DNA of 64,000 nt, taken from Clostridia bacterium. GTDB lineage: Bacteria > Bacillota > Clostridia > JAAYHZ01. The stretch is taken from assembly GCA_050950825.1 (NCBI GenBank), contig JBMNIH010000010.1, forward strand, positions 32,001-96,000. The letters are read 5' to 3'. This document shows, piece after piece, positions 16,652 through 63,978 of this stretch (its first letter is position 1; each line of letters opens with the position of its first letter). The notes under the pieces are model-generated. The model was not told the DNA's origin and ran no database searches. It was given only the letters and a program-made list of their open reading frames with translations. The translations under genes were made by a program, and so were the position numbers.

Positions 16652-17749
16652 TTATATAATTTCAACCTTCGGAGGGCAGATATAGTCATGGAAACGACGG
16701 GCTGTGCAAGCGCTGTCGGCATCTCCGTCATGGAAATAGATTCGGTAGCGATAAACGGCACTTTCTCCTTCCTCCAAAGTACGGCTTCCCGTAAAGTAGA
16801 AGTTATTAGGGGCAAACAACCCGTAGTTACGAATATGCCAGTAAGTCGGATAGTGATCGTTTTCCGGGTTATCATAAACGGCAATTCCCGCAAGATATCC
16901 GTCGCTTATCCCGTAATAATCGCACCAGTGTGCTCTTTTTCCCCAGCACTCTTCTTCATCCTTCGCACCGTAGGAATTGATCATGGTGCCGCCCTTTGTA
17001 ACGTTCATGGTTTCCGCAACGCGGATTCCCAAGGGGCCCGCTTCTTTGGTGGGACCGAAAACAACTTTACCGAAGGAAGCTTTAAACCGGCTTTCGATAT
17101 CCACGTATCTTCCGGAGGAGGGCATATTGTAAAAGGTAAGGGTTCGGAATTCTTCCAAAACGGGATTTCCGTCAAAATCCGTCCAAAGATTGATAGCGTC
17201 AATCGCACCGTATACCGGACCGGATTTGCAGCAAGCCTTCGTTTGTTTTTGTTTTCCGTATCCTTCTCTTTCATTCCAAAAATCGATTCCGTTCACGTCT
17301 CCGATCGCAATCCAGACCGAACGCTGATGAGGATGCTCCTTTACCTGAAAGTCCAGTCGGGTAAACCTGTGGCCGTATGTCCCGATAATAGGTCCTAAAT
17401 ACGGCTTGGCGAAGTTGGAATCGTAAACATAAGATGTAAAGAGCTTGCCGTCAATGGAAACATCGATGCGATTTTCTTGTTGCAATAAGCTTACACCTGA
17501 AGAAGGAAAATCGCCTTGTTCCAAAACGTAGGTTTTTTGCTCTCCCGCCTTAAGAGACACCGTAAAATGCAAAACGACGGCATCCTTATCCGTACTTATT
17601 TGAACGGGAAATCTTTCATTCGCTTCATCTCTCAAGACATGCGCTCCGTCCGTTAAAATGCTCCCTTTTTCCTTCGGCAGAGTAACGGAAACCGGACAAT
17701 CCTGCCTGTCATGACGTCCGGCATTTACAACCAGCTTGATTCCTTCCAT
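16652..17749 (-). CDS. DUF6807 / 'PmoA-like' family protein (sugar-locus associated)
   Basis: KPYLGP, HPHQRSVW, GIDFW, WGKRAHWCDY, WHIRNYGLFAPN motifs. Confidence 0.75.
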   Translation of the reverse strand: MEGIKLVVNAGRHDRQDCPVSVTLPKEKGSILTDGAHVLRDEANERFPVQISTDKDAVVLHFTVSLKAGEQKTYVLEQGDFPSSGVSLLQQENRIDVSIDGKLFTSYVYDSNFAKPYLGPIIGTYGHRFTRLDFQVKEHPHQRSVWIAIGDVNGIDFWNEREGYGKQKQTKACCKSGPVYGAIDAINLWTDFDGNPVLEEFRTLTFYNMPSSGRYVDIESRFKASFGKVVFGPTKEAGPLGIRVAETMNVTKGGTMINSYGAKDEEECWGKRAHWCDYYGISDGYLAGIAVYDNPENDHYPTYWHIRNYGLFAPNNFYFTGSRTLEEGESAVYRYRIYFHDGDADSACTARRFHDYICPPKVEII

Positions 17750-18025: not shown

Positions 18026-18049
18026 TAAATATTTACAAGGGTGAGGTTG

Positions 18050-19315
18050 ATGCTTAAGATTGTCTATCCCATCTGTTGTGGAATTGATGTCCACAAAAAG
18101 TTTGTAATTGCCACTATTGCCACCACCAATGATAAAAATGTTACTTCCTATCAAACACGTCGTTTTAATACTTTCAAAAATGATCTAATCGCTCTCAACA
18201 ACTGGTTAGTAGAAAACAAGTGCAAAGATGTCTGTATGGAATCCACCGGAAAGTACTGGATTCCTGTTTTTAACGTGCTCGAGGATTTCTGCACTATTAC
18301 CCTTGCAAACCCGAGATACGTTAAAAATATCCCAGGTAAGAAAACCGATAAGCGAGATTCAATTTGGCTTGCTGACTTACACAAGCATGCATTGGTAAAA
18401 GGTAGCTTTATCCCATCTAAGCCTATACGGGAGTTGCGGGATTTAATTCGGTACAAGTCTAAACTTACCAACGTCTCTTCCAGTGAGAAAAACCGGGTGC
18501 AAAATTCGCTTACAGTTTCAAACATCATGCTTGCCAATGTTGTTTCCGACACCTTCGGCAAGTCTGCTTCCTCAATTATTAAGCACATGATAGAGAATCC
18601 TGATATCATCGACTTTGATTATTCTTCAATGCTCCACAAAAGTCTGAAGAAAAAATCGGATGAAATTGAACAAGCCGTTGCTGGTAAATTCTCTAAGGAG
18701 CAAGCGGCAAAATTGTCTGTATGCTATGAGCACTATAACAGCGTTGAAAAATGCATCGAAATACTGGAAGCTACAATACTCGAGCTATCTTTACCTTTCA
18801 AAGAACAAATTGACATCATCGCTACTTTACCTGGTATTAAGCAGGCATCGGCTACAGCTATTCTTTCAGAAATCGGAACCGATATGTCCGTCTTCACCTC
18901 GGACAAGCATCTTTGTTCCTGGGCTGGCCTTACACCCCAGAGTAATGAAAGTGCCGGTAAGAAGAAAAGTGTCCGTATTAGCCGCGCCGGTGTCTACATT
19001 AAACCTTTACTTGTCCAGTGTGCTAATGCCGCTGTAAAGGACAAGTCCTGCACTGTTTTCAAAAACCGCTATGAAGCGATTAAAAAACGTCGTGGTCACA
19101 AACGTGCTATTATTGCTACCGCAAGAATGATTTTAACCTGCATCTATCACATGCTCTCTAAAAATGAGCCATTCAATCCATTGCTGTATGATGACAATGC
19201 GAAATCTAAGAAGCGTAATCAGCAGGATTCTCTAAGTATTGAGCAGGCCATCGCATTTTTGCAAGCCAATGGGTATACTGTGAATATTTCTGATCTAGTG
19301 GCAATAACAAACTAA
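18050..19315 (+). CDS. IS110 family transposase/recombinase
   Basis: DEDD RuvC-like motifs GIDVHK, MESTG, KTDKRD; C-terminal SWAGLTPQSNESAG with conserved Ser. Confidence 0.95.
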   Translation: MLKIVYPICCGIDVHKKFVIATIATTNDKNVTSYQTRRFNTFKNDLIALNNWLVENKCKDVCMESTGKYWIPVFNVLEDFCTITLANPRYVKNIPGKKTDKRDSIWLADLHKHALVKGSFIPSKPIRELRDLIRYKSKLTNVSSSEKNRVQNSLTVSNIMLANVVSDTFGKSASSIIKHMIENPDIIDFDYSSMLHKSLKKKSDEIEQAVAGKFSKEQAAKLSVCYEHYNSVEKCIEILEATILELSLPFKEQIDIIATLPGIKQASATAILSEIGTDMSVFTSDKHLCSWAGLTPQSNESAGKKKSVRISRAGVYIKPLLVQCANAAVKDKSCTVFKNRYEAIKKRRGHKRAIIATARMILTCIYHMLSKNEPFNPLLYDDNAKSKKRNQQDSLSIEQAIAFLQANGYTVNISDLVAITN

Positions 19316-19421
19316 TAGTGTAATTCCAGTTTCATCCACAGTCCTAGGTATTCCTTAAGGGCTTGCTTTGTTGCGGCCTTCGCGGGTCTTTTTTATTTTC
19401 ACACTAAAACCTCCCGGCTTT

Positions 19422-20042
19422 TTATTGTCTCTTCGTTAAGGTTTTTTCCAAAAAACCGAGCACGATATGTCCCGCCTTTAACATGGTAAATGCCTGCCAT
19501 GCCGTTCCAAAAAGAAGGCAAAACAGGTGTATATAAAGACCTTTGTATGCCAATAAGTTTCCTACAATTATATATATGCATACCACAATTATCGATCTTC
19601 TTTTTAGCTTTTTGATTTTCTCCGGTTTGGTAATCGGTTTATTCGGACTGTCTACCGGGGCTTTGGCAATAACGACCCAAAGTGCAAGCAGCAAAAGAAT
19701 ATCGGTTAAGACATATACAAAGACAGGATCCGCGTTTTGTACCCCTATCAGCTTAAATACCGTAGGCATCAAAACGCTTATTACCACTCCCGTAAGGCTG
19801 CAAATCCAAATCGATGACAAATGAGCACCGCCTGCATTGATTCTTAAGATGCTTACGGAAAAACTTAAAATCAAAGATGCATACAAAGTGCCCAGTAAAG
19901 AAGAAAAAACGAGAATCAAAATCATTACGAAAACAAATTGAATAATGGCCAAAAGCCCGTAAATAATGACTTCTTTTTGATCTTGATCCGCCTTAATTGC
20001 CTCGGCGATCTTTTCTCCTAAATTTTCGGCCAGCTTATACAT
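19422..20042 (-). CDS. agrB: Accessory gene regulator B (autoinducer peptide maturation protease)
   Basis: EVIIYGL, LRINAGGAH...C catalytic His/Cys, APVDSPNKPI motif; multiple TM helices. Confidence 0.93.
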   Translation of the reverse strand: MYKLAENLGEKIAEAIKADQDQKEVIIYGLLAIIQFVFVMILILVFSSLLGTLYASLILSFSVSILRINAGGAHLSSIWICSLTGVVISVLMPTVFKLIGVQNADPVFVYVLTDILLLLALWVVIAKAPVDSPNKPITKPEKIKKLKRRSIIVVCIYIIVGNLLAYKGLYIHLFCLLFGTAWQAFTMLKAGHIVLGFLEKTLTKRQ

Positions 20043-20505
20043 CTTTCCTCTTCCTCATGAACTTAAAGTAATAAACAAGAAATACTTGAACCGCAAGAAT
20101 GATGGTTGACGGAATCGTGTATACCATTCGGGTGTTTGAATCCTTCAAAATCAATTCCATCTTTTCGGGGAATAATAAGTGGATCGATAAAAAATTCAAC
20201 GCTTCCGATATAATTAAAAACAGTACCAACATCAAAGTACCGTTAATAACCTTGGTAAGCGGAATTTTTGCAATAAGATTAAAAATGACCACCAAAACGG
20301 CCATGGTGATGAGTAAGCTCATGCCGTATCCTGTCATCTGAAGAACGGACCGAGATATAAAAGTAACGATCATTAAGATCGCCCAAAGTAAAAGCATTTC
20401 ACCGGTTTTCGGCCTCTTTATATCGCAAAAATAATAAACGCACAAAGCGGCAAGAATTGATTCCGGCGCTCCTTTTACAAGTATTTCCCAAACACTAGTT
20501 TCCAT
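20035..20505 (-). CDS. Small multi-TM membrane protein of the agr operon
   Basis: 156 aa, about 5 hydrophobic helices, overlaps agrB by 8 nt; no catalytic domain. Confidence 0.75.
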   Translation of the reverse strand: METSVWEILVKGAPESILAALCVYYFCDIKRPKTGEMLLLWAILMIVTFISRSVLQMTGYGMSLLITMAVLVVIFNLIAKIPLTKVINGTLMLVLFLIISEALNFLSIHLLFPEKMELILKDSNTRMVYTIPSTIILAVQVFLVYYFKFMRKRKDV

Positions 20506-20508
20506 TCC

Positions 20509-21093
20509 CTACTTCCCCCCGCAATATCTGTTATTTAATAAAACAATCATATTATAAAAAACGATCACAAAATATGCTTTCATTATAATATCGCCGATAC
20601 TCATTACACAATAACCAAAATCAAATATGTCACCTAAAAAATTCATTTTGGTTTGTTCACTCATACCGATATGTATGGCCCCCGGCGCGGAGAAAGTAGC
20701 TTCATTCGAAAAACCGGTCAAGTTGGAAAAGGTAAACTTAACCGGCATTTTGCCCCCGTTCGCATTCATTACCAATTTATTTAACAATGTTCCGACCAAG
20801 ACCAAGCCGCATCCGAATATTGCCGATCGGTAAAGCTTAAAATAAAAAACCGGTAATATCAAATACAAGAAAAACCCGGTTTTTAAAATTCCGGCGTACC
20901 GGATTACGTCAAGGTTACCCTTTGCCGACAGGTATTGAAAAACCCAAAAAACAATTTCCAATGCCAAGAACGGATAAATTATGAAACTTCTAAAAATAAC
21001 AAAAGGCTTGTATCCTTTAATCCAAGCAATAACAAATGCAGCTATTAAAAAAGGTAACAATTTAATGTGCCTCCGCAAGTTCAATATTGGCAT
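20509..21093 (-). CDS. DUF5317 family membrane protein
   Basis: LNKLVMNANGGKMPV ... TKMNFLGDIF ... SIGDII motifs. True start may be TTG at 21060 after GGAGG. Confidence 0.82.
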   Translation of the reverse strand: MPILNLRRHIKLLPFLIAAFVIAWIKGYKPFVIFRSFIIYPFLALEIVFWVFQYLSAKGNLDVIRYAGILKTGFFLYLILPVFYFKLYRSAIFGCGLVLVGTLLNKLVMNANGGKMPVKFTFSNLTGFSNEATFSAPGAIHIGMSEQTKMNFLGDIFDFGYCVMSIGDIIMKAYFVIVFYNMIVLLNNRYCGGK

Positions 21094-22756
21094 GCTCCGA
21101 AGCCGTTAACAAAAACTCCAAGAATTGATCCGTCAATTCAGGATCAAAATGTTTTCCTTTGCACCGTTTTATTTCTTCGACGGCTTCCTCAAAGGATAAT
21201 TTTTTTTTGTATGGACGGTCATTGGTCATGGCATCGAAGCTATCGATAATCGTAAGCAAACGAGCCTCTTTGCATATTTGCTCGCCTGCCAAGCCGTCCG
21301 GATAACCGGTACCGTCATAACGCTCGTGATGCTGCCTTACAATCGGTATGATTTCCGGATCGTATCCTAATTCCGATATGATTCTTGCGCCCCATTCGGG
21401 ATGCTTCTGCAGCATTTGGAATTCTTCGTCGGTCAATTTGGTTGATTTCATTAATACGCGAGAAGGAATATTGATTTTACCGATATCGTGCATATACGCT
21501 GCAAAAATCATTACTTTTTTGGTGCATTCATCGTATCCTGCCCACTCGGCAAAGCTCTTCATGTAATTGACAACGTTTTCGATGTGATTGTATGTAAATT
21601 CGTCTCGGGTATTAATGACCGTAATTAACGTCCTTATGGCCGTAAACATTTCGCTTGTATATTTATCGTCGTTATCTATGTTTTCAAATATGTTTTCATA
21701 TTTTCGAACCTGGTTCTTGTCCATAAATTTCGCACGATACAATGCTATATCCGCAAAGCGAACCAGATCGTCCACGGACTTCGCTTCATCGCTCATTTTT
21801 GCAACGCCAATGGATACCGTCAATTTCTTTTCAGGCAAATATTCCTCTCCGTAGAATTTCGTAGATTTCACTTGGTCGCAAATTTTATGAGCGATTTCCA
21901 TGGCTTGATTTTCGGTGAAAGGCCCGGTTATGGCAAACTCGTCTCCGCCTTGCCTGCAAACAATGCCGTTTTGAGCATTTTCCGTAAAGATATTGGCAAA
22001 TTGGACTAGAATGTCATCGCCTTGGACGTGTCCGTGGTATTCGTTATAGGTCTTGAAATTATCAATATCTATTAATATTAAAGCTAAGGGAGTATTGTCA
22101 TGATGGTAATGCTGGATCTTGTCTTCAAGATAAGAGATCAGATATCGATGGTTATAAACGCCCGTCAAACCGTCTTTTTCCGCCAAATCCTTTAAAACAC
22201 CGATATATTTTTCTTTTTCACTTAAGTAATATCCGATTATGTAAGAGGTTAAAACAAGCTCCAAAGCAAAGAGAATGTTTCCCTCCATCATGACCTCGGT
22301 GGCCGTTTTAAAATGCGATTGGGCAAGGGTATATATGGTGACAAAAGCAAGAGAGGACGATATACCCCATGTCAATCCGTTTTCTATGGTCATGATGATA
22401 ACAACAAGGAAAAACAAGTGCTTGTGGTCTCGCGCTAAGGAAGGAGATGCGCATGCTATAATAATCCCGCCTACTAAAAAAAACAAAAAAATGTTCTGCA
22501 GTTTTTTCAGTATCTTCTCTCTTTTTGAAAACTTAAATCCGATAAAAAGCCATATGGAGAAAAGAGCAAGAAAAAGTATTATGCTTGCATAAAAAGGACC
22601 CGGACCTTCCATAATTATTTCCGTAACGCTTCTATCGGAGAAAAGTACTTGAAATAACATGAAAGCCGAAGCAAACATCAACAGCAACTTGATTGATGAC
22701 AATAGATTGATAAGTTTTCCGTTATTGTACGAGTACACTGTCGCAATGACCTCCAC
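21062..22756 (-). CDS. Membrane-bound diguanylate cyclase / HD-GYP phosphodiesterase
   Basis: N-terminal TM region, DGLTGVYN, DIDNFK, RQGGDEF, then MHDIGK and HHERYDGTGYP. Start may be GTG at 22738. Confidence 0.93.
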   Translation of the reverse strand: MEVIATVYSYNNGKLINLLSSIKLLLMFASAFMLFQVLFSDRSVTEIIMEGPGPFYASIILFLALFSIWLFIGFKFSKREKILKKLQNIFLFFLVGGIIIACASPSLARDHKHLFFLVVIIMTIENGLTWGISSSLAFVTIYTLAQSHFKTATEVMMEGNILFALELVLTSYIIGYYLSEKEKYIGVLKDLAEKDGLTGVYNHRYLISYLEDKIQHYHHDNTPLALILIDIDNFKTYNEYHGHVQGDDILVQFANIFTENAQNGIVCRQGGDEFAITGPFTENQAMEIAHKICDQVKSTKFYGEEYLPEKKLTVSIGVAKMSDEAKSVDDLVRFADIALYRAKFMDKNQVRKYENIFENIDNDDKYTSEMFTAIRTLITVINTRDEFTYNHIENVVNYMKSFAEWAGYDECTKKVMIFAAYMHDIGKINIPSRVLMKSTKLTDEEFQMLQKHPEWGARIISELGYDPEIIPIVRQHHERYDGTGYPDGLAGEQICKEARLLTIIDSFDAMTNDRPYKKKLSFEEAVEEIKRCKGKHFDPELTDQFLEFLLTASEHANIELAEAH

Positions 22757-22763
22757 CTAGTGA

Positions 22764-22797
22764 AAAGGCTGTAAAAAGTAACCTTTCCACAGCCTTT
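22764..22797 (-). terminator. Stem-loop between agrD and the GGDEF/HD-GYP gene (partial terminator or mRNA stabiliser)
   Basis: AAAGGCTGT (22764-22772) / ACAGCCTTT (22789-22797), short U tract on the minus strand. Confidence 0.6.
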
Positions 22798-22808
22798 CTT
22801 GTAGCTTG

Positions 22809-22934
22809 TTACTTATTTTGCAACGATGTCGGCTCCTTCGGTTGGTGGATGAAAAGCCAGCATGCCGAGGTTGCCAATAGTGTTGCTACTACAGAAGCTA
22901 CAACTGCAGCTACTTTTAGTGCTTTTTGTTTCAT
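22809..22934 (-). CDS. agrD: AgrD cyclic thiolactone autoinducer precursor, MKQKALKVAAVVASVVATLLATSACWLFIHQPKEPTSLQNK (41 aa)
   Basis: Translated by hand; below the ORF-track size cutoff. GAAGGAGGT RBS, amphipathic leader, TSA-C-xxxx-HQPxEP motif typical of clostridial AgrD. Confidence 0.93.
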   Translation of the reverse strand: MKQKALKVAAVVASVVATLLATSACWLFIHQPKEPTSLQNK

Positions 22935-23146
22935 TTGTTTTACCTCCTTCTTTAAGTATTCATTCATATGATATAAACATGAATGTCTATTTAATAAGCC
23001 GGTCTCTTTTCATAAGAAGCCTTTCCATCGATATAATTGTTCTAATAACCTTCCGCTTGCCCATACGTCTAATTGTGATTGTACCAAACCGCTGCGCGGT
23101 AGCTCAACAGTATTTACCCTTTTCGGGTCCTAACCTTTATATTTAA

Positions 23147-23175
23147 TTCCTATCACCTTCAAAATCGTATATAAT
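23147..23175 (+). promoter_or_regulatory. Putative sigma-A promoter for the integrase-transposase pair
   Basis: TTCCTA - 17 bp - TATAAT, about 40 bp upstream of the integrase ATG. Confidence 0.55.
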
Positions 23176-23212
23176 AGCTCCCATTAATTTGATTTTGAAA
23201 GGTGGTATTGTT

Positions 23213-24088
23213 ATGTCAACAAATTTATCCGTCGATTTTGATCAAGCGCTCCACAATGTTAAGTTTGTTCTTGAGACCTGCCGTTATTCTCAAAGAACAA
23301 TCTATCTTTATGAGCGACAAATTATTAAGTTTTATCAAACGGTTCAGAAACATCCCTGTCAAATCTCTCAGCAAGATGTACTTTTGTATTTGCACGGTCT
23401 TGTTAAGCGATCCTTGAGTGCGGATTACATCAACCAAGTCAGAGCAGCCATACGTCTTTTCTTCCGTGTAGGATTGCAAAAAACTTTTGATGAGTCTTTA
23501 CTTCCTCGTGTTCGTAAGGAAACTGTACTGCCTGCCGTATTGTCGCAAAATGAAATCAAACGAATATTTTCCTACATAAGAAACCCTCGATACAGAGTCA
23601 TTCTATACCTTTGTTATTCTGCAGGTCTTCGTCTCGGAGAAGCCTTGAATCTAAAAATCAAAGATATTGACAGTGAGAATATGCAGATCGCCGTTCGAAA
23701 AAGTAAAAACAACAAAGATCGCTATACGATACTGTCTCCGGAGTATTTGACGCTTCTTCGAGATTATTGGAGGCTTTACAGACCTGAAGGTCCTTATCTT
23801 TTCCCGGGTGCCTCTTCCGGTAAGCCTATGGCAGCGCAGGGAATCCAAAAGGCGTTTCATGATGCCGTAATAAAAGCCGGAATCCGCAAAAATGCGTGCA
23901 TTCATTCTTTACGCCATAGCTTTGCGACACACCTTTACGAATCCGGACAAGATATCGAAGTCATACAATCCCTACTCGGTCATGCAAGCATTTGGACCAC
24001 CAAACGTTACACGCACTTGGCACGGAAGCATCTTCAAGGGGTGAAGAGTCCGGCTGACGGTTTCGGAGGTGATTTTAATGTCCTCTAA
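23213..24088 (+). CDS. Tyrosine recombinase/integrase
   Basis: AGLRLGE (R), KNNKDR (K), HSLRHSF (HxxR), LLGH, TKRY (Y); N-terminal SAM-like domain. Start at ATG 23213. Confidence 0.93.
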   Translation: MSTNLSVDFDQALHNVKFVLETCRYSQRTIYLYERQIIKFYQTVQKHPCQISQQDVLLYLHGLVKRSLSADYINQVRAAIRLFFRVGLQKTFDESLLPRVRKETVLPAVLSQNEIKRIFSYIRNPRYRVILYLCYSAGLRLGEALNLKIKDIDSENMQIAVRKSKNNKDRYTILSPEYLTLLRDYWRLYRPEGPYLFPGASSGKPMAAQGIQKAFHDAVIKAGIRKNACIHSLRHSFATHLYESGQDIEVIQSLLGHASIWTTKRYTHLARKHLQGVKSPADGFGGDFNVL

Positions 24089-25235
24089 AATTCAAAAGAT
24101 CTTTCAGTCCTTTAAAGAGAGATTGCCGTCCCAAAGCTATTCTCCCCAAAAAACAAAAGTCATTGACGCAATCTGTAAGTGCCGCACTCCCGAAATGGGA
24201 GGATTCGTCCAACGATGTGACGATTGCGGTTACACCGAGGCACATTTCAATTCCTGCCGAAATCGACATTGTCCCGTTTGTCAAGGGTCCAACCAAAGAA
24301 AATGGGTTGAAAAGCAAGTCGCCAACACGCTCCCGATACCCTATTTCCACGTGGTTTTCACCGTGCCTGCCGAACTCAATCCCTTGTTTCTTGCAAACCC
24401 CGACAATATGTTCAATCTGCTCTTTCGTGCCGCTAGTCAAACCGTTTTGACTCTCTCGGAGAACGAAAAATTTCTCGGGGCGCAACCCGGCTTTATCGCC
24501 GTCTTACATACATGGGGGCGAAACATTCAGTTCCATCCCCATTTGCATTGTATCGTAACGGGCGGCGGATTGTCCAGCGATCGCAAACGATTCGTTGTTT
24601 CCAAAGATTCCTTTTTCCTTCCTCTTAAAGCGATCAGCATCGTTTTCCGGGGAAAGTTCCTCGAGGAATTGAAAACATTCTTTGTTAATAACACCCTTCA
24701 ATTGACGGAAGGTTTGGATACCGTTCAAAAAAGGCAACAATTTCTGGACTTACTGTACTCCAAGGATTGGGTATGCTATTGCAAGAAACCGTTTAAAGAC
24801 GCTTCCGCCGTTATACGGTATCTCGGCCGATATACTCACAAAGTGGCGATCTCGGACAGCCGAATCGTTTCTCATAATCCCGACACGCAGACGGTGCGTT
24901 TCCACTGGAAAGATTACAAAGATCACAACAAAATCAAGATCATGCAGCTTTCCGAAGACGAGTTCGTACGCCGTTTTCTCCTCCATGTGTTGCCCAAAGG
25001 ATTCATGAAAATTCGACATTACGGATTGCTTGCCAACCGAGGAAGAGAAGAGCGTTTGGAATTATGCAGAGATTTGCTGAAGGCAACCGCACCCACGGGA
25101 GTTATTCAAGAATTCCCCAAGTGCAAAGTTGAACCTCTTGACCGCTGTCCGAAATGCGGAAGCCAATCTTTTCTTTTGGTTCCTCGCTCTTTGTACGCGC
25201 AGCCGGCTTTATTGCCTACCGGTACCGGACCGTAG
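24078..25235 (+). CDS. IS91 family (HUH, Y2) rolling-circle transposase
   Basis: N-terminal Zn-binding CDDC...SCRNRHCPVC, HVVFT, HPHLH (HUH), YLGRY (YxxxY), KIRHYG. Start at ATG 24078 after GGAGG. Confidence 0.94.
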   Translation: MSSKIQKIFQSFKERLPSQSYSPQKTKVIDAICKCRTPEMGGFVQRCDDCGYTEAHFNSCRNRHCPVCQGSNQRKWVEKQVANTLPIPYFHVVFTVPAELNPLFLANPDNMFNLLFRAASQTVLTLSENEKFLGAQPGFIAVLHTWGRNIQFHPHLHCIVTGGGLSSDRKRFVVSKDSFFLPLKAISIVFRGKFLEELKTFFVNNTLQLTEGLDTVQKRQQFLDLLYSKDWVCYCKKPFKDASAVIRYLGRYTHKVAISDSRIVSHNPDTQTVRFHWKDYKDHNKIKIMQLSEDEFVRRFLLHVLPKGFMKIRHYGLLANRGREERLELCRDLLKATAPTGVIQEFPKCKVEPLDRCPKCGSQSFLLVPRSLYAQPALLPTGTGP

Positions 25236-31846: not shown

Positions 31847-32842
31847 ATGAAATACAAGTGGATACCGGTAAACTTAAACGCACCCTTTGCACCTCGTGAC
31901 GGTGCGGGGCTTCTGTCTTTCAAAGGGAAGCTGTGGCTTTTGGGAGGATGGAACCCGAAAGACAAAGTAAACTTCCCCTCCATATGCAATTCCGAGGTAT
32001 GGTCTTCCGAGGACGGATTGAACTGGACTTTGGAGATAAAGGAAGCACCCTGGGAAGGAAGACATACGGCGGGTTATGTGGTTCATGATCAAAAGATGTG
32101 GATTGTGGGAGGCGATTGCATCCAAGGGCGCTACCAGCCGGATGTGTGGTGCTCGGAAAACGGCAAGGACTGGGAGCTCGTCTCGGATAACGTTCCGTGG
32201 GGGCAAAGAGTGCTGCATCATACCGTGGCTTTCAAAGGGAAAATATGGGTCATGGGCGGACAAACCGTCCCCGGATTCGTACCTTCCGAACCGAGAACGA
32301 TATACTATAACGATGTATGGTGCTCCGAAGACGGAAAGCATTGGGATCTCGTACTGGAGCACGCACCGTGGGTTCCGAGGGGCATGATCGGGAATAACGC
32401 CGTACTCCATGATCGTATATGGTTATTAGGTGGCGGTACCTATGATACGCCGGAGTTTCCCGTAAGAAAATATTACAACGACGTTTGGAGTACGGAAGAC
32501 GGAATCCGGTGGGAGCTTCACAGAGAAACGAGCCCGTGGAAAGGAAGACAGTACCATGAGATTGCGGCATTTGACGGACATTTGTGGGTAATGGAAGGCT
32601 TTGACGGCGTCTTTTACATCGAAATGCCGGACGGTACAAAGAAATTTAAAAATCCGGATAGAAGCGGCAATATTAAAGACGTTTGGTATTCTCCGGACGG
32701 TGTTCATTGGGAGGAATTACCCGATACGCCTTGGCTGCCTCGCCATGCGGCAAGTGTTACGGTACATCAAGATGCGTTGTGGATGGTAGCGGGAAACAAT
32801 ATGACACCGGATGTGTGGAAATTGGTAAGGATTTCCGACTAA
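31847..32842 (+). CDS. Kelch-like repeat beta-propeller protein
   Basis: About six repeats of PW..R....V..GKxWxxGG...DVWxSEDGxxW. Confidence 0.85.
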   Translation: MKYKWIPVNLNAPFAPRDGAGLLSFKGKLWLLGGWNPKDKVNFPSICNSEVWSSEDGLNWTLEIKEAPWEGRHTAGYVVHDQKMWIVGGDCIQGRYQPDVWCSENGKDWELVSDNVPWGQRVLHHTVAFKGKIWVMGGQTVPGFVPSEPRTIYYNDVWCSEDGKHWDLVLEHAPWVPRGMIGNNAVLHDRIWLLGGGTYDTPEFPVRKYYNDVWSTEDGIRWELHRETSPWKGRQYHEIAAFDGHLWVMEGFDGVFYIEMPDGTKKFKNPDRSGNIKDVWYSPDGVHWEELPDTPWLPRHAASVTVHQDALWMVAGNNMTPDVWKLVRISD

Positions 32843-63794: not shown

Positions 63795-63978
63795 CCCTGT
63801 TCCCTTACCTGAGAGTTTCTATTGAACAATATTGCTCCTTCGGTGCTTTTCGCTTTTCAGAGTGTTGTCCGGATTCGGTCCTTTTGCCTGAAAGATTCAT
63901 CCTCCGCCGACTTGACTTACGGAAGACTTGCTTCTTCGGCTTCCGCATAAACGGGAAATCTCCCGATATCCATCATCC
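63795..63978 (-). ncRNA. Tandem glycine riboswitch
   Basis: Minus strand: GGGAGA...GCCGAAGAAGCAA...AATCTTTCAGGCAAAAGGAC (aptamer 1, ~63971-63871) and CTCTGAAAA...CACCGAAGGAGCAA...AAACTCTCAGGTAAGGGAACAGGG (aptamer 2, ~63862-63795), upstream of gcvT. Confidence 0.95.

Follow-up and report, generated by a model that had tools for sequence, protein, structure and literature searches.

An agr-type quorum-sensing operon was examined in a 64,000-nucleotide (nt) stretch of Clostridia bacterium DNA (the window; positions 32,001 to 96,000 of contig JBMNIH010000010.1, assembly GCA_050950825.1), where the peptide genes agrB and agrD stand together with genes for two further membrane proteins and for a predicted enzyme of cyclic di-GMP (c-di-GMP) turnover. 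An earlier reading of the letters alone (the sequence-only reading) had described a tightly coupled minus-strand operon consisting of agrD, a gene for a transmembrane (TM) GGDEF-HD-GYP protein, a DUF5317 gene, a gene for a protein with about five TM segments, and agrB. This description was confirmed by the open reading frames (ORFs), the protein families, and the overlaps between genes. The first gene on the minus strand is agrD (22809..22934, with the longest ORF reaching 22967), which matched the AgrD model TIGR04223 (E 9.9e-12). Its likely start is the ATG at 22934, which lies behind GAAGGAGG (GGAGG box) and gives a 41-aa product of homologue-like size with the C-terminus ...ATSACWLFIHQPKEPTSLQNK. 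The second gene (21062-22756, minus strand) encodes a 564-aa protein in which two Pfam domains follow about 190 hydrophobic residues. These residues form a six-helix membrane domain without a Pfam family (the NTD, residues 1-190, 22187..22756), which is followed by a GGDEF domain (residues 194-348, 21713..22177; PF00990, E 5.7e-36) and an HD-GYP domain (residues 376-541, 21134..21631; HD_5 PF13487, E 3.1e-39). Next on the same strand are the gene for a DUF5317 membrane protein (20509..21093, with a probable TTG start at 21060; PF17248, E 2.5e-21, 76.7 bits against a gathering cut-off of 25), the gene for a 156-aa, five-helix membrane protein that we call TM5 (20035..20505; recognized by homology to the sensor half of AgrC-class kinases), and agrB, which encodes the membrane peptidase (19422..20042; PF04647, E 1.5e-36, residues 5-186) and is the sole AgrB gene of the genome. 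The enzyme gene and the DUF5317 gene overlap by 32 nt, or abut if the TTG at 21060 is the DUF5317 start; 3 nt separate the DUF5317 gene from the TM5 gene; and the TM5 gene and agrB overlap by 8 nt (ATGTATAA).

A 16-bp hairpin (22763..22798, minus strand) was found by folding 3' of the agrD stop codon and is followed by UUUUCAC (centroid -22.1 kcal/mol, z -3.95; 0/200 shuffles were equally stable). It is a possible attenuator or 3' stabilizer preceding the enzyme gene. The DNA of the operon occurs in anaerobic-digester and bioreactor metagenomes and also in six RNA libraries. Contigs of at least 99% identity from four of the RNA libraries bridge DUF5317, the enzyme gene, and agrD (20755-23086) as well as agrB and TM5 (18900-20321). 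In run X18, the contig depth was 82 over the agrD region and 2-6 downstream, a hint only that cannot rank expression.

Conservation was followed in a class-wide sample of 399 genomes and a phylum sample of 401 genomes. TM5 was present in all three genomes of the organism's order and in 19 of the 399 class genomes. Local phmmer searches of 12-kb loci around the class hits showed DUF5317, TM5 in one to three copies, AgrB, a gap, and a GGDEF-HD-GYP protein in 11 loci, and TM5-AgrB followed by an NTD kinase in a twelfth. The TM5 motif alone was then used to retrieve 78 named loci, which were annotated with profiles built from the first locus set. In 72 of the 78, TM5 was followed on the same strand by a protein bearing the NTD, which was fused to GGDEF-HD-GYP in 67 loci and found with a PAS histidine kinase alone in 5. 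Written with U for DUF5317, T for TM5, B for AgrB, G for the GGDEF-HD-GYP protein, and K for the NTD kinase, the 67 loci had the architectures UTBG (43), TBG (14), UTBGTKT (5), TG (4), and UTTBG (1), and the five kinase-only loci were TBK (3), TTK (1), and TTBK (1). Of the six remaining loci, four reached the end of their contig (L068, L079, L104, and L110), L084 held TM5 alone, and L052 had another gene after agrD. Two of the named loci, L099 and L103, are the two ends of one contig and are identical in content. The carriers include Clostridium perfringens (L061 and L074), C. sporogenes (L070), C. botulinum (L078), C. tepidum, C. cadaveris, C. tertium, and C. carboxidivorans, as well as metagenome-assembled genomes labelled Peptococcaceae and Cellulosilyticaceae.

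An AgrD-like ORF followed AgrB in 70 of the 71 AgrB-bearing loci and, in five clusters without AgrB, occupied the place between TM5 and the NTD protein. When the AgrD of the window (...SACWLFIHQPKEP...) was aligned by eye with 70 homologues, a Cys or Ser five residues ahead of the cleavage site and an acidic, proline-containing tail were seen; the pattern (T/S)SAC-xxxx-(Y/H)QP(E/K)EP is common to the window and 70 of the 71 AgrB-linked loci. The usual gene order elsewhere places agrD after agrB and ahead of the enzyme gene, while in the window, as in both other genomes from its taxonomic order, it is cyclically permuted to agrD-enzyme-DUF5317-TM5-agrB. Because the arrangement recurs in 72 of 78 loci that were retrieved with TM5 alone, the five-gene cluster is not a chance adjacency. 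The sequence-only reading had looked to conserved synteny of agrB and agrD with DUF5317 and GGDEF/HD-GYP genes, and this expectation was strongly upheld. Two of the loci, L096 (2447-4330) and L116 (2425-4288), also have another agr-like pair of a different kind, which is located about 2.5 kb upstream of the c-di-GMP-type cluster and is made up of an AgrC-like kinase of 423-426 aa and then a divergent AgrB.

The window was also said to contain no histidine kinase and no LytTR response regulator, and this was found to be correct. HATPase_c and HATPase_c_5 had no match in the window (C10:32001-96000), compared to 21 and 4 matches genome-wide, and LytTR (PF04397) had no match across the whole 97.1%-complete genome, which therefore lacks AgrA. 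An AgrC in which the sensor is fused to the HPK10 kinase core was likewise absent from the window, where the homologue of the sensor half, TM5, is present alone.

Pfam and NCBIfam gave no match for TM5, even with the threshold relaxed to E 10. A profile built for it found 983 representative proteins (E ≤0.001) among 1.84 billion, of which the best 150 are all 117-205 aa long, and on this evidence TM5 belongs to a fairly large family of membrane proteins encoded on their own. TM5 aligns colinearly with residues 5-143 of 452-aa SPOB_a+HATPase_c_5 kinases (hhalign probability 98%, E 1e-14, about 139 columns), and phmmer matches to the N-terminus of these kinases reached E values down to 5e-16. 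Two 452-aa kinases with weak TM5 matches adjoin REC-LytTR regulators, and an N-terminus like TM5 was seen in 68 protein clusters of roughly 450-aa kinases. In a structural search of the ESM Atlas, TM5 (model pLDDT 87.2) was placed on a 438-aa HATPase_c_5 kinase cluster with a TM-score of 0.76 over 147 residues. Neither Foldseek with the TM5 model (E ≤0.001) nor the TM5 profile gave a match in the PDB, where the AgrC entries found by sequence search are cytoplasmic modules only. A common origin of TM5, the NTD, DUF5317, and AgrB was considered and ruled out, since the hhalign probability was ≤1.6% for all pairs. A stand-alone, 155-aa TM5-like ORF at L169 (G306:C1:2234472-2234885) shares 67% identity with the N-terminal part of the fused 452-aa kinases, and no AgrB, kinase, or NTD gene was found within about 5 kb of it; this ORF may be a sensor half that was detached recently or left orphaned.

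A search of the class sample with the first 150 residues of the fused kinase led to operons in which the two halves of AgrC are separate genes. Eleven loci were fetched, and eight of these contained, in this order, a TM5-like gene, a short kinase that corresponds to residues ~176-450 of the fused form, and AgrB (L170-L179, in genomes G210, G156, G091, G262, G181, G033, G068, and G288). The TM5-like sensors are 152-171 aa and the 2TM kinase cores are 282-311 aa in length; the 2TM segment that opens the cores has no relationship to the NTD or to TM5. AgrB is followed by an AgrD-like ORF of 41-44 aa in L172, L176, and L179. Among five split loci checked with Pfam, SPOB_a+HATPase_c_5 was found in 5/5 short kinases and REC-LytTR in 5/5 regulators. 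Judged by their gene content, these loci are complete agr operons with AgrC encoded as two genes and the TM5-like protein as its sensor half. We know of no description of split-AgrC operons, although the literature was not searched for them specifically. The sequence-only reading had c-di-GMP taking the place of AgrC and AgrA. The absence of AgrA holds, but AgrC is not simply missing, as the protein with about five TM segments is a homologue of the AgrC-class sensor half.

The partner of TM5 in the window is the NTD-GGDEF-HD-GYP protein. Its GGDEF motif (RQGGDEF, residues 270-274) and its HD-GYP motifs (MHDIGK from residue 422 and HHERYDGTGYP from residue 476) are intact, and it is predicted to be a bifunctional c-di-GMP enzyme. 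The RxxD I-site, an optional feature that is present in 55 of 75 relatives, is absent. Among 78 NTD-GGDEF-HD-GYP proteins, GG[DE]EF was found in 75, and HD and HHExx[DN]GxGYP were found in all 78. The NTD is shared with another class of proteins: in the window enzyme, residues 13-182 align to residues 15-185 of 617-aa PAS-HisKA-HATPase_c kinases (phmmer E ~1e-10), with NTD profile matches between the enzyme and the PAS kinases of E 1e-45 to 1e-56. These NTD-PAS kinases sit after TM5 or TM5-AgrB-AgrD in other genomes. In addition to the 67 loci in which it heads a GGDEF-HD-GYP protein, the NTD was found by Pfam annotation to head PAS-HisKA-HATPase_c kinases in the 5 kinase-only loci and in 5 second clusters. 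By this distribution, the NTD travels with the agr genes and not with one output. It occurs in 26 of the 399 class genomes, in proteins of 563-640 aa barring contig-end fragments and two weak short matches, and 24 of the 26 also have TM5, which is adjacent to the NTD in 19, apart in 1 (G041), and on a different contig in 4 (G074, G104, G121, and G173).

No Pfam family matched the NTD, even when the threshold was relaxed to E 10, and the domain was modelled as a six-helix bundle (pLDDT 86.7). The best fold match was the membrane part of the Pseudomonas aeruginosa diguanylate cyclase ImcA (8wcn_B, Z 11.9 over 174 residues, suggestive only), followed by the membrane adenylyl cyclases 8sl3_A (Z 11.0) and 6r3q_A (Z 10.8). 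Language-model features placed the NTD nearest the MASE2 cluster (score 0.91), which is a lead only. A word-based protein search with the NTD gave 4 close relatives and was too insensitive to use. Prediction of an NTD and TM5 complex scored 0.00, which is no answer and speaks neither for nor against binding. The NTD is the candidate transmitter or sensor partner of TM5.

DUF5317, which the sequence-only reading had described as a part of the agr operon, proved to have a wider range. The family is present in 129 of the 401 phylum-sample genomes. Among 30 phylum-wide loci retrieved with DUF5317 as the sole query (L139-L168), 22 have an adjoining HD-GYP protein, 3 have a GGDEF-only match, and 5 have neither. 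The DUF5317 gene usually lies directly after, and overlaps, a 420-450-aa HD-GYP gene, the same HD-GYP-first order as in the window. Within the agr clusters, DUF5317 accompanies 49 of the 67 GGDEF-HD-GYP types and 0 of the 5 kinase-only types. Because of these two distributions, DUF5317 is best described as an accessory or general neighbor of HD-GYP enzymes and not of Agr. The conserved polar motifs N..aN.G.MPV and D.iD.GY..SiGD hint at a binding or catalytic site. DUF5317 is mentioned nowhere in the literature searched, and the family gains a context here as a partner of HD-GYP enzymes.

Co-variation with the peptide was assessed in 59 non-redundant complete clusters. Mean pairwise distances were 0.57 for TM5, 0.55 for AgrB, 0.53 for the NTD, and 0.32 for the catalytic part. 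The distance between peptide rings, taken as the four residues after the Cys, was correlated with the TM5, AgrB, and NTD distances while controlling for catalytic distance, and the partial r values of 0.25, 0.19, and 0.14, respectively, are a lead only; each was reached in 0/999 permutations. The most variable segments, TM5 113-121 and NTD 39-52, are loops that the positive-inside rule places outside the cell. The co-variation and the outward variable segments are indirect support for TM5 as the protein that binds the autoinducing peptide.

The window and about 90 related loci lead us to a model in which a detachable AgrC sensor half would be combined with exchangeable outputs, the commonest being the membrane GGDEF-HD-GYP enzyme. 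AgrB would cut and cyclize AgrD, giving a secreted thiolactone peptide with the predicted ring C-W-L-F-I. TM5, the stand-alone AgrC-class sensor half, would detect the peptide outside the cell and, inside the membrane, relay the signal to the six-helix NTD that heads the GGDEF-HD-GYP protein; the balance of c-di-GMP synthesis and breakdown would thereby shift. DUF5317 may be a membrane accessory that assists the HD-GYP moiety. Since TM5 pairs in relatives with an AgrC core and AgrA, or with an NTD-PAS kinase, it behaves as a portable input with exchangeable outputs. We give a probability of roughly 0.6 to the reading in which TM5, as a portable module for peptide sensing, acts on the NTD in trans and sets c-di-GMP turnover. 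The broader proposal is held more tentatively, at somewhat short of even odds: that TM5 is a portable, in-trans peptide receptor for at least three transmitters, namely an AgrC core with AgrA, an orphan PAS histidine kinase, and a bifunctional GGDEF-HD-GYP enzyme. The sequence-only reading had the autoinducer controlling the c-di-GMP enzyme through a membrane complex. The comparative evidence does point to a membrane sensing complex that acts on this enzyme. What the computations show is the gene content and its conservation, the sharing of domains, the split and fused forms, the intact catalytic motifs, and the occurrence in RNA libraries; that the peptide controls c-di-GMP is something we infer, along with peptide binding by TM5, the NTD, or both, physical contact of these two proteins, and the direction in which c-di-GMP would change.

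Several observations weigh against this model, and some of them favor another explanation in which the genes are only expressed together. A distal kinase of the AgrC/VirS type would then sense the peptide, the enzyme, TM5, and DUF5317 would be cargo of the agr operon whose amounts change with the quorum state, and the NTD and TM5 would respond to a different cue at the membrane. Experiments support VirS as a peptide receptor that accounts for toxin regulation in C. perfringens, which is a carrier of the same cluster (L061), according to the portion of a 2021 review that was available (PMC8043184; the other articles cited below are likewise drawn on in part). The window genome has one AgrC-like kinase of its own on contig C4 (C4:59921-61300), a 459-aa ORF with a multi-pass N-terminus and a HATPase_c_5 domain (E 5.3e-15), which could sense the peptide. 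The adjoining REC protein is 205 aa long and has no recognizable output domain, and a radical-SAM gene is nearby (L007, C4:54000-66000); this kinase may belong to another peptide system. With such a kinase and its REC-only partner here, and VirS in C. perfringens (PMC8043184), the circuit may not be the self-contained one envisaged by the sequence-only reading. The hairpin after agrD and the operon layout also fit plain transcriptional coupling. The gene linkage also has exceptions: L052 is a DUF5317-TM5-AgrB-AgrD cluster without the enzyme gene, and G041, a complete genome, keeps TM5 and the NTD 1.4 Mb apart. Furthermore, hhalign gave TM5 a probability of ≤0.3% against the AgrC-like kinases of L096, L116, and C4; because of this lack of likeness, TM5 appears to represent one subfamily of Agr/AgrC-class sensors. 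The partial Mantel correlations are inflated by shared ancestry, the Z-score of the NTD fold match is under the safe level for helical bundles and in the chance range, and RNA-library contigs can contain DNA, so that the bridging contigs document presence in RNA libraries and are no proof of a single transcript. On the other hand, the NTD adjoins TM5 and agrD whichever output it carries, GGDEF-HD-GYP or PAS kinase; where AgrC is split within a complete agr operon, TM5 supplies its sensor half; the divergence of TM5 and the NTD is rapid and parallels that of the peptide ring; and the genome has no LytTR protein, while the N-terminus of its C4 kinase is unrelated to TM5. We therefore regard co-expression by itself as unlikely.

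TM5, and perhaps DUF5317, could instead help AgrB with maturation or export of the peptide, with the enzyme being regulated in another way. TM5 is translationally coupled to agrB in the window by the overlap of their genes and precedes AgrB in most loci. A C. perfringens agrB mutant was complemented only by a plasmid that also carried the two upstream genes, which the authors attributed to operon structure (PMC2706048), and the two genes are stated to be of unknown function (PMC8043184). A role restricted to AgrB is hard to reconcile with the five clusters that retain TM5, AgrD, and the NTD protein without AgrB, with the five loci where TM5 lies directly before an NTD kinase and neither agrB nor agrD is between them, or with the fused kinases of L046 and L047, in which a TM5-like domain heads a kinase core that has a LytTR partner and no AgrB match was found across the 12.5-kb loci. 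DUF5317, for its part, pairs with HD-GYP proteins in most of its phylum-wide loci, and help with maturation is improbable overall. The wiring could also run in reverse: the membrane enzyme would respond to a signal of a different kind and, either through c-di-GMP or by itself, govern peptide production, which would place it upstream of Agr. Gene linkage alone gives no direction, and gene order is flexible, with agrD heading the operon here and lying mostly between agrB and the enzyme gene elsewhere. Reverse wiring would leave unexplained both the homology of TM5 to a receptor input domain and the variation of TM5 and the NTD with the peptide ring, and we consider it very improbable.

If TM5 is a peptide receptor that serves all three transmitters, Agr peptides would directly set c-di-GMP levels in many clostridia, independently of VirS/AgrA-type regulators, and orphan kinases would possibly give the sporulation phosphorelay an input from Agr peptides. 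Such a link between a peptide and c-di-GMP in Gram-positive bacteria would join quorum sensing with decisions on biofilm, motility, and sporulation. It would address the open question of how a signal is transmitted from the many clostridial loci with agrBD only, assign functions to the two C. perfringens agr-operon genes described as unknown, and provide a candidate for the additional peptide receptor left open by Li and McClane (PMC7492741). In evolutionary terms, it would illustrate the splitting and re-pairing of a receptor.

Mobile elements flank the operon. An integrase gene (23189-24088, plus strand) and an IS91-type transposase gene (24069-25235, plus strand; Y2_Tnp and Zn_Tnp_IS91) are located shortly upstream of agrD. 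The contigs from RNA libraries end at 23078-23086, where the depth rises abruptly to values of up to 2086, and loose ends at 23086 run into other sequence. Because the contigs break there, the depth jumps, and the loose ends diverge, a mobile element at 23078-25235 is suggested, which would be multi-copy or highly represented and whose insertion would be absent from some strains. On the other side, an IS110-family transposase gene (18041-19315, plus strand) separates agrB from a 365-aa ORF (16652-17749, minus strand). No transposase is present at the corresponding place in the related genome G001 (L033), where a 372-aa DUF6807 gene directly follows AgrB. We assumed that the 365-aa ORF is the counterpart of this gene; if so, the IS110 element is a recent insertion downstream of the operon. 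A tandem glycine riboswitch (63795-63975, minus strand), with two aptamers scoring 55.6 and 36.4 bits, accounts for the sole Rfam matches in the window.

The cluster can be compared to several known systems. In Staphylococcus aureus, AgrB, AgrD, and the sensor are the fast-evolving parts of agr, as they are in the clusters compared here. The window shares with agrBDCA the AgrB and AgrD proteins for a cyclic thiolactone peptide and a polytopic membrane sensor encoded alongside, but the window cluster has no AgrC kinase core or AgrA, the sensor is a separate 156-aa protein, and the output is GGDEF-HD-GYP. The split-AgrC operons are closer, with a TM5-like protein (TM5 profile E 1e-13 to 1e-20) directly upstream of the signaling partner and agrB-agrD. 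That partner is a 2TM-SPOB_a-HATPase_c_5 core followed by REC-LytTR, whereas in the window it is NTD-GGDEF-HD-GYP plus DUF5317.

The same gene set as in the window is found in C. perfringens, where L061 encodes DUF5317 (188 aa), TM5, AgrB (214 aa), AgrD (...TSACLWFTHQPEEPKSLRDE), and NTD-GGDEF-HD-GYP (567 aa) and is 36%, 29%, 31%, 45%, and 37% identical to the window for the five proteins, respectively. As in this type of cluster, DUF5317, TM5, AgrB, and AgrD are all encoded on one strand in the window, though the order is cyclically permuted, and because LytTR is absent from the window genome there is no VirR/AgrA-type partner. The C. perfringens operon CPE1563-CPE1562-agrB-agrD is co-transcribed (Vidal et al. 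2009, PMC2706048) and has no AgrA or AgrC (PMC8043184). From gene order in another strain, CPE1563 and CPE1562 are probably DUF5317 and TM5. The enzyme gene downstream of agrD is not discussed in the portions of these two articles that were available (PMC2706048; PMC8043184). Further peptide receptors remain possible in this species, and a band of about 75 kDa in a peptide pulldown was left unidentified (Li and McClane, PMC7492741); to relate it to the 567-aa enzyme would be pure speculation.

In C. botulinum, CBO0336 (615 aa) and CBO0340 (617 aa) have been described as "5 TM-PAS-HisKA-HATPase" proteins with function not determined (PMC11210211). Loci of the C. botulinum/C. sporogenes type (L066, L069, L070, L078, and L086) contain the c-di-GMP-type cluster, then TM5 with an NTD-PAS kinase, and a further TM5 at or near the end of the fetched stretch; in L037 and L039, a third TM5 is followed by AgrB and a second NTD-PAS kinase. 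The NTD-PAS kinases are 615-618 aa in L066, L069, L070, and L086, and the L078 ORF was called at 592 aa. By size, architecture, and tag order, CBO0336 and CBO0340 are likely the NTD-PAS kinases of these loci. In contrast to these agr regions, the window holds the c-di-GMP type only.

The sequence-only reading knew of no mechanistic characterization of such a circuit, and this agrees with the literature searched, which is short on subscription journals and in which no description of an agr/c-di-GMP gene linkage was found. The portions covered of PMC4983038, PMC8748961, and PMC5261816 contain nothing on it. AgrA regulates c-di-GMP genes in C. difficile, according to the part of the literature covered. 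On the side of the enzyme, ImcA of P. aeruginosa and the membrane adenylyl cyclases resemble the NTD in having a six-helix bundle before a nucleotide cyclase domain, with 8-10% identity, and no family membership is claimed. In quorum sensing of the diffusible signal factor (DSF) family in Gram-negative bacteria, the quorum signal acts directly on c-di-GMP enzymes (RpfC/RpfG, with an HD-GYP domain, and RpfR). The system proposed here is alike in that a quorum signal would act directly on c-di-GMP turnover. It differs from DSF systems in that their signal is a fatty acid, their receptors are other proteins, and RpfG is a soluble response regulator; no homology is claimed. Thus, the wiring of quorum sensing to c-di-GMP is itself already known from DSF, and what would be new here is Agr signaling with a detachable receptor half and a c-di-GMP output. 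In our view, the most useful new leads are the split-AgrC operons and the NTD that the enzyme has in common with orphan kinases.

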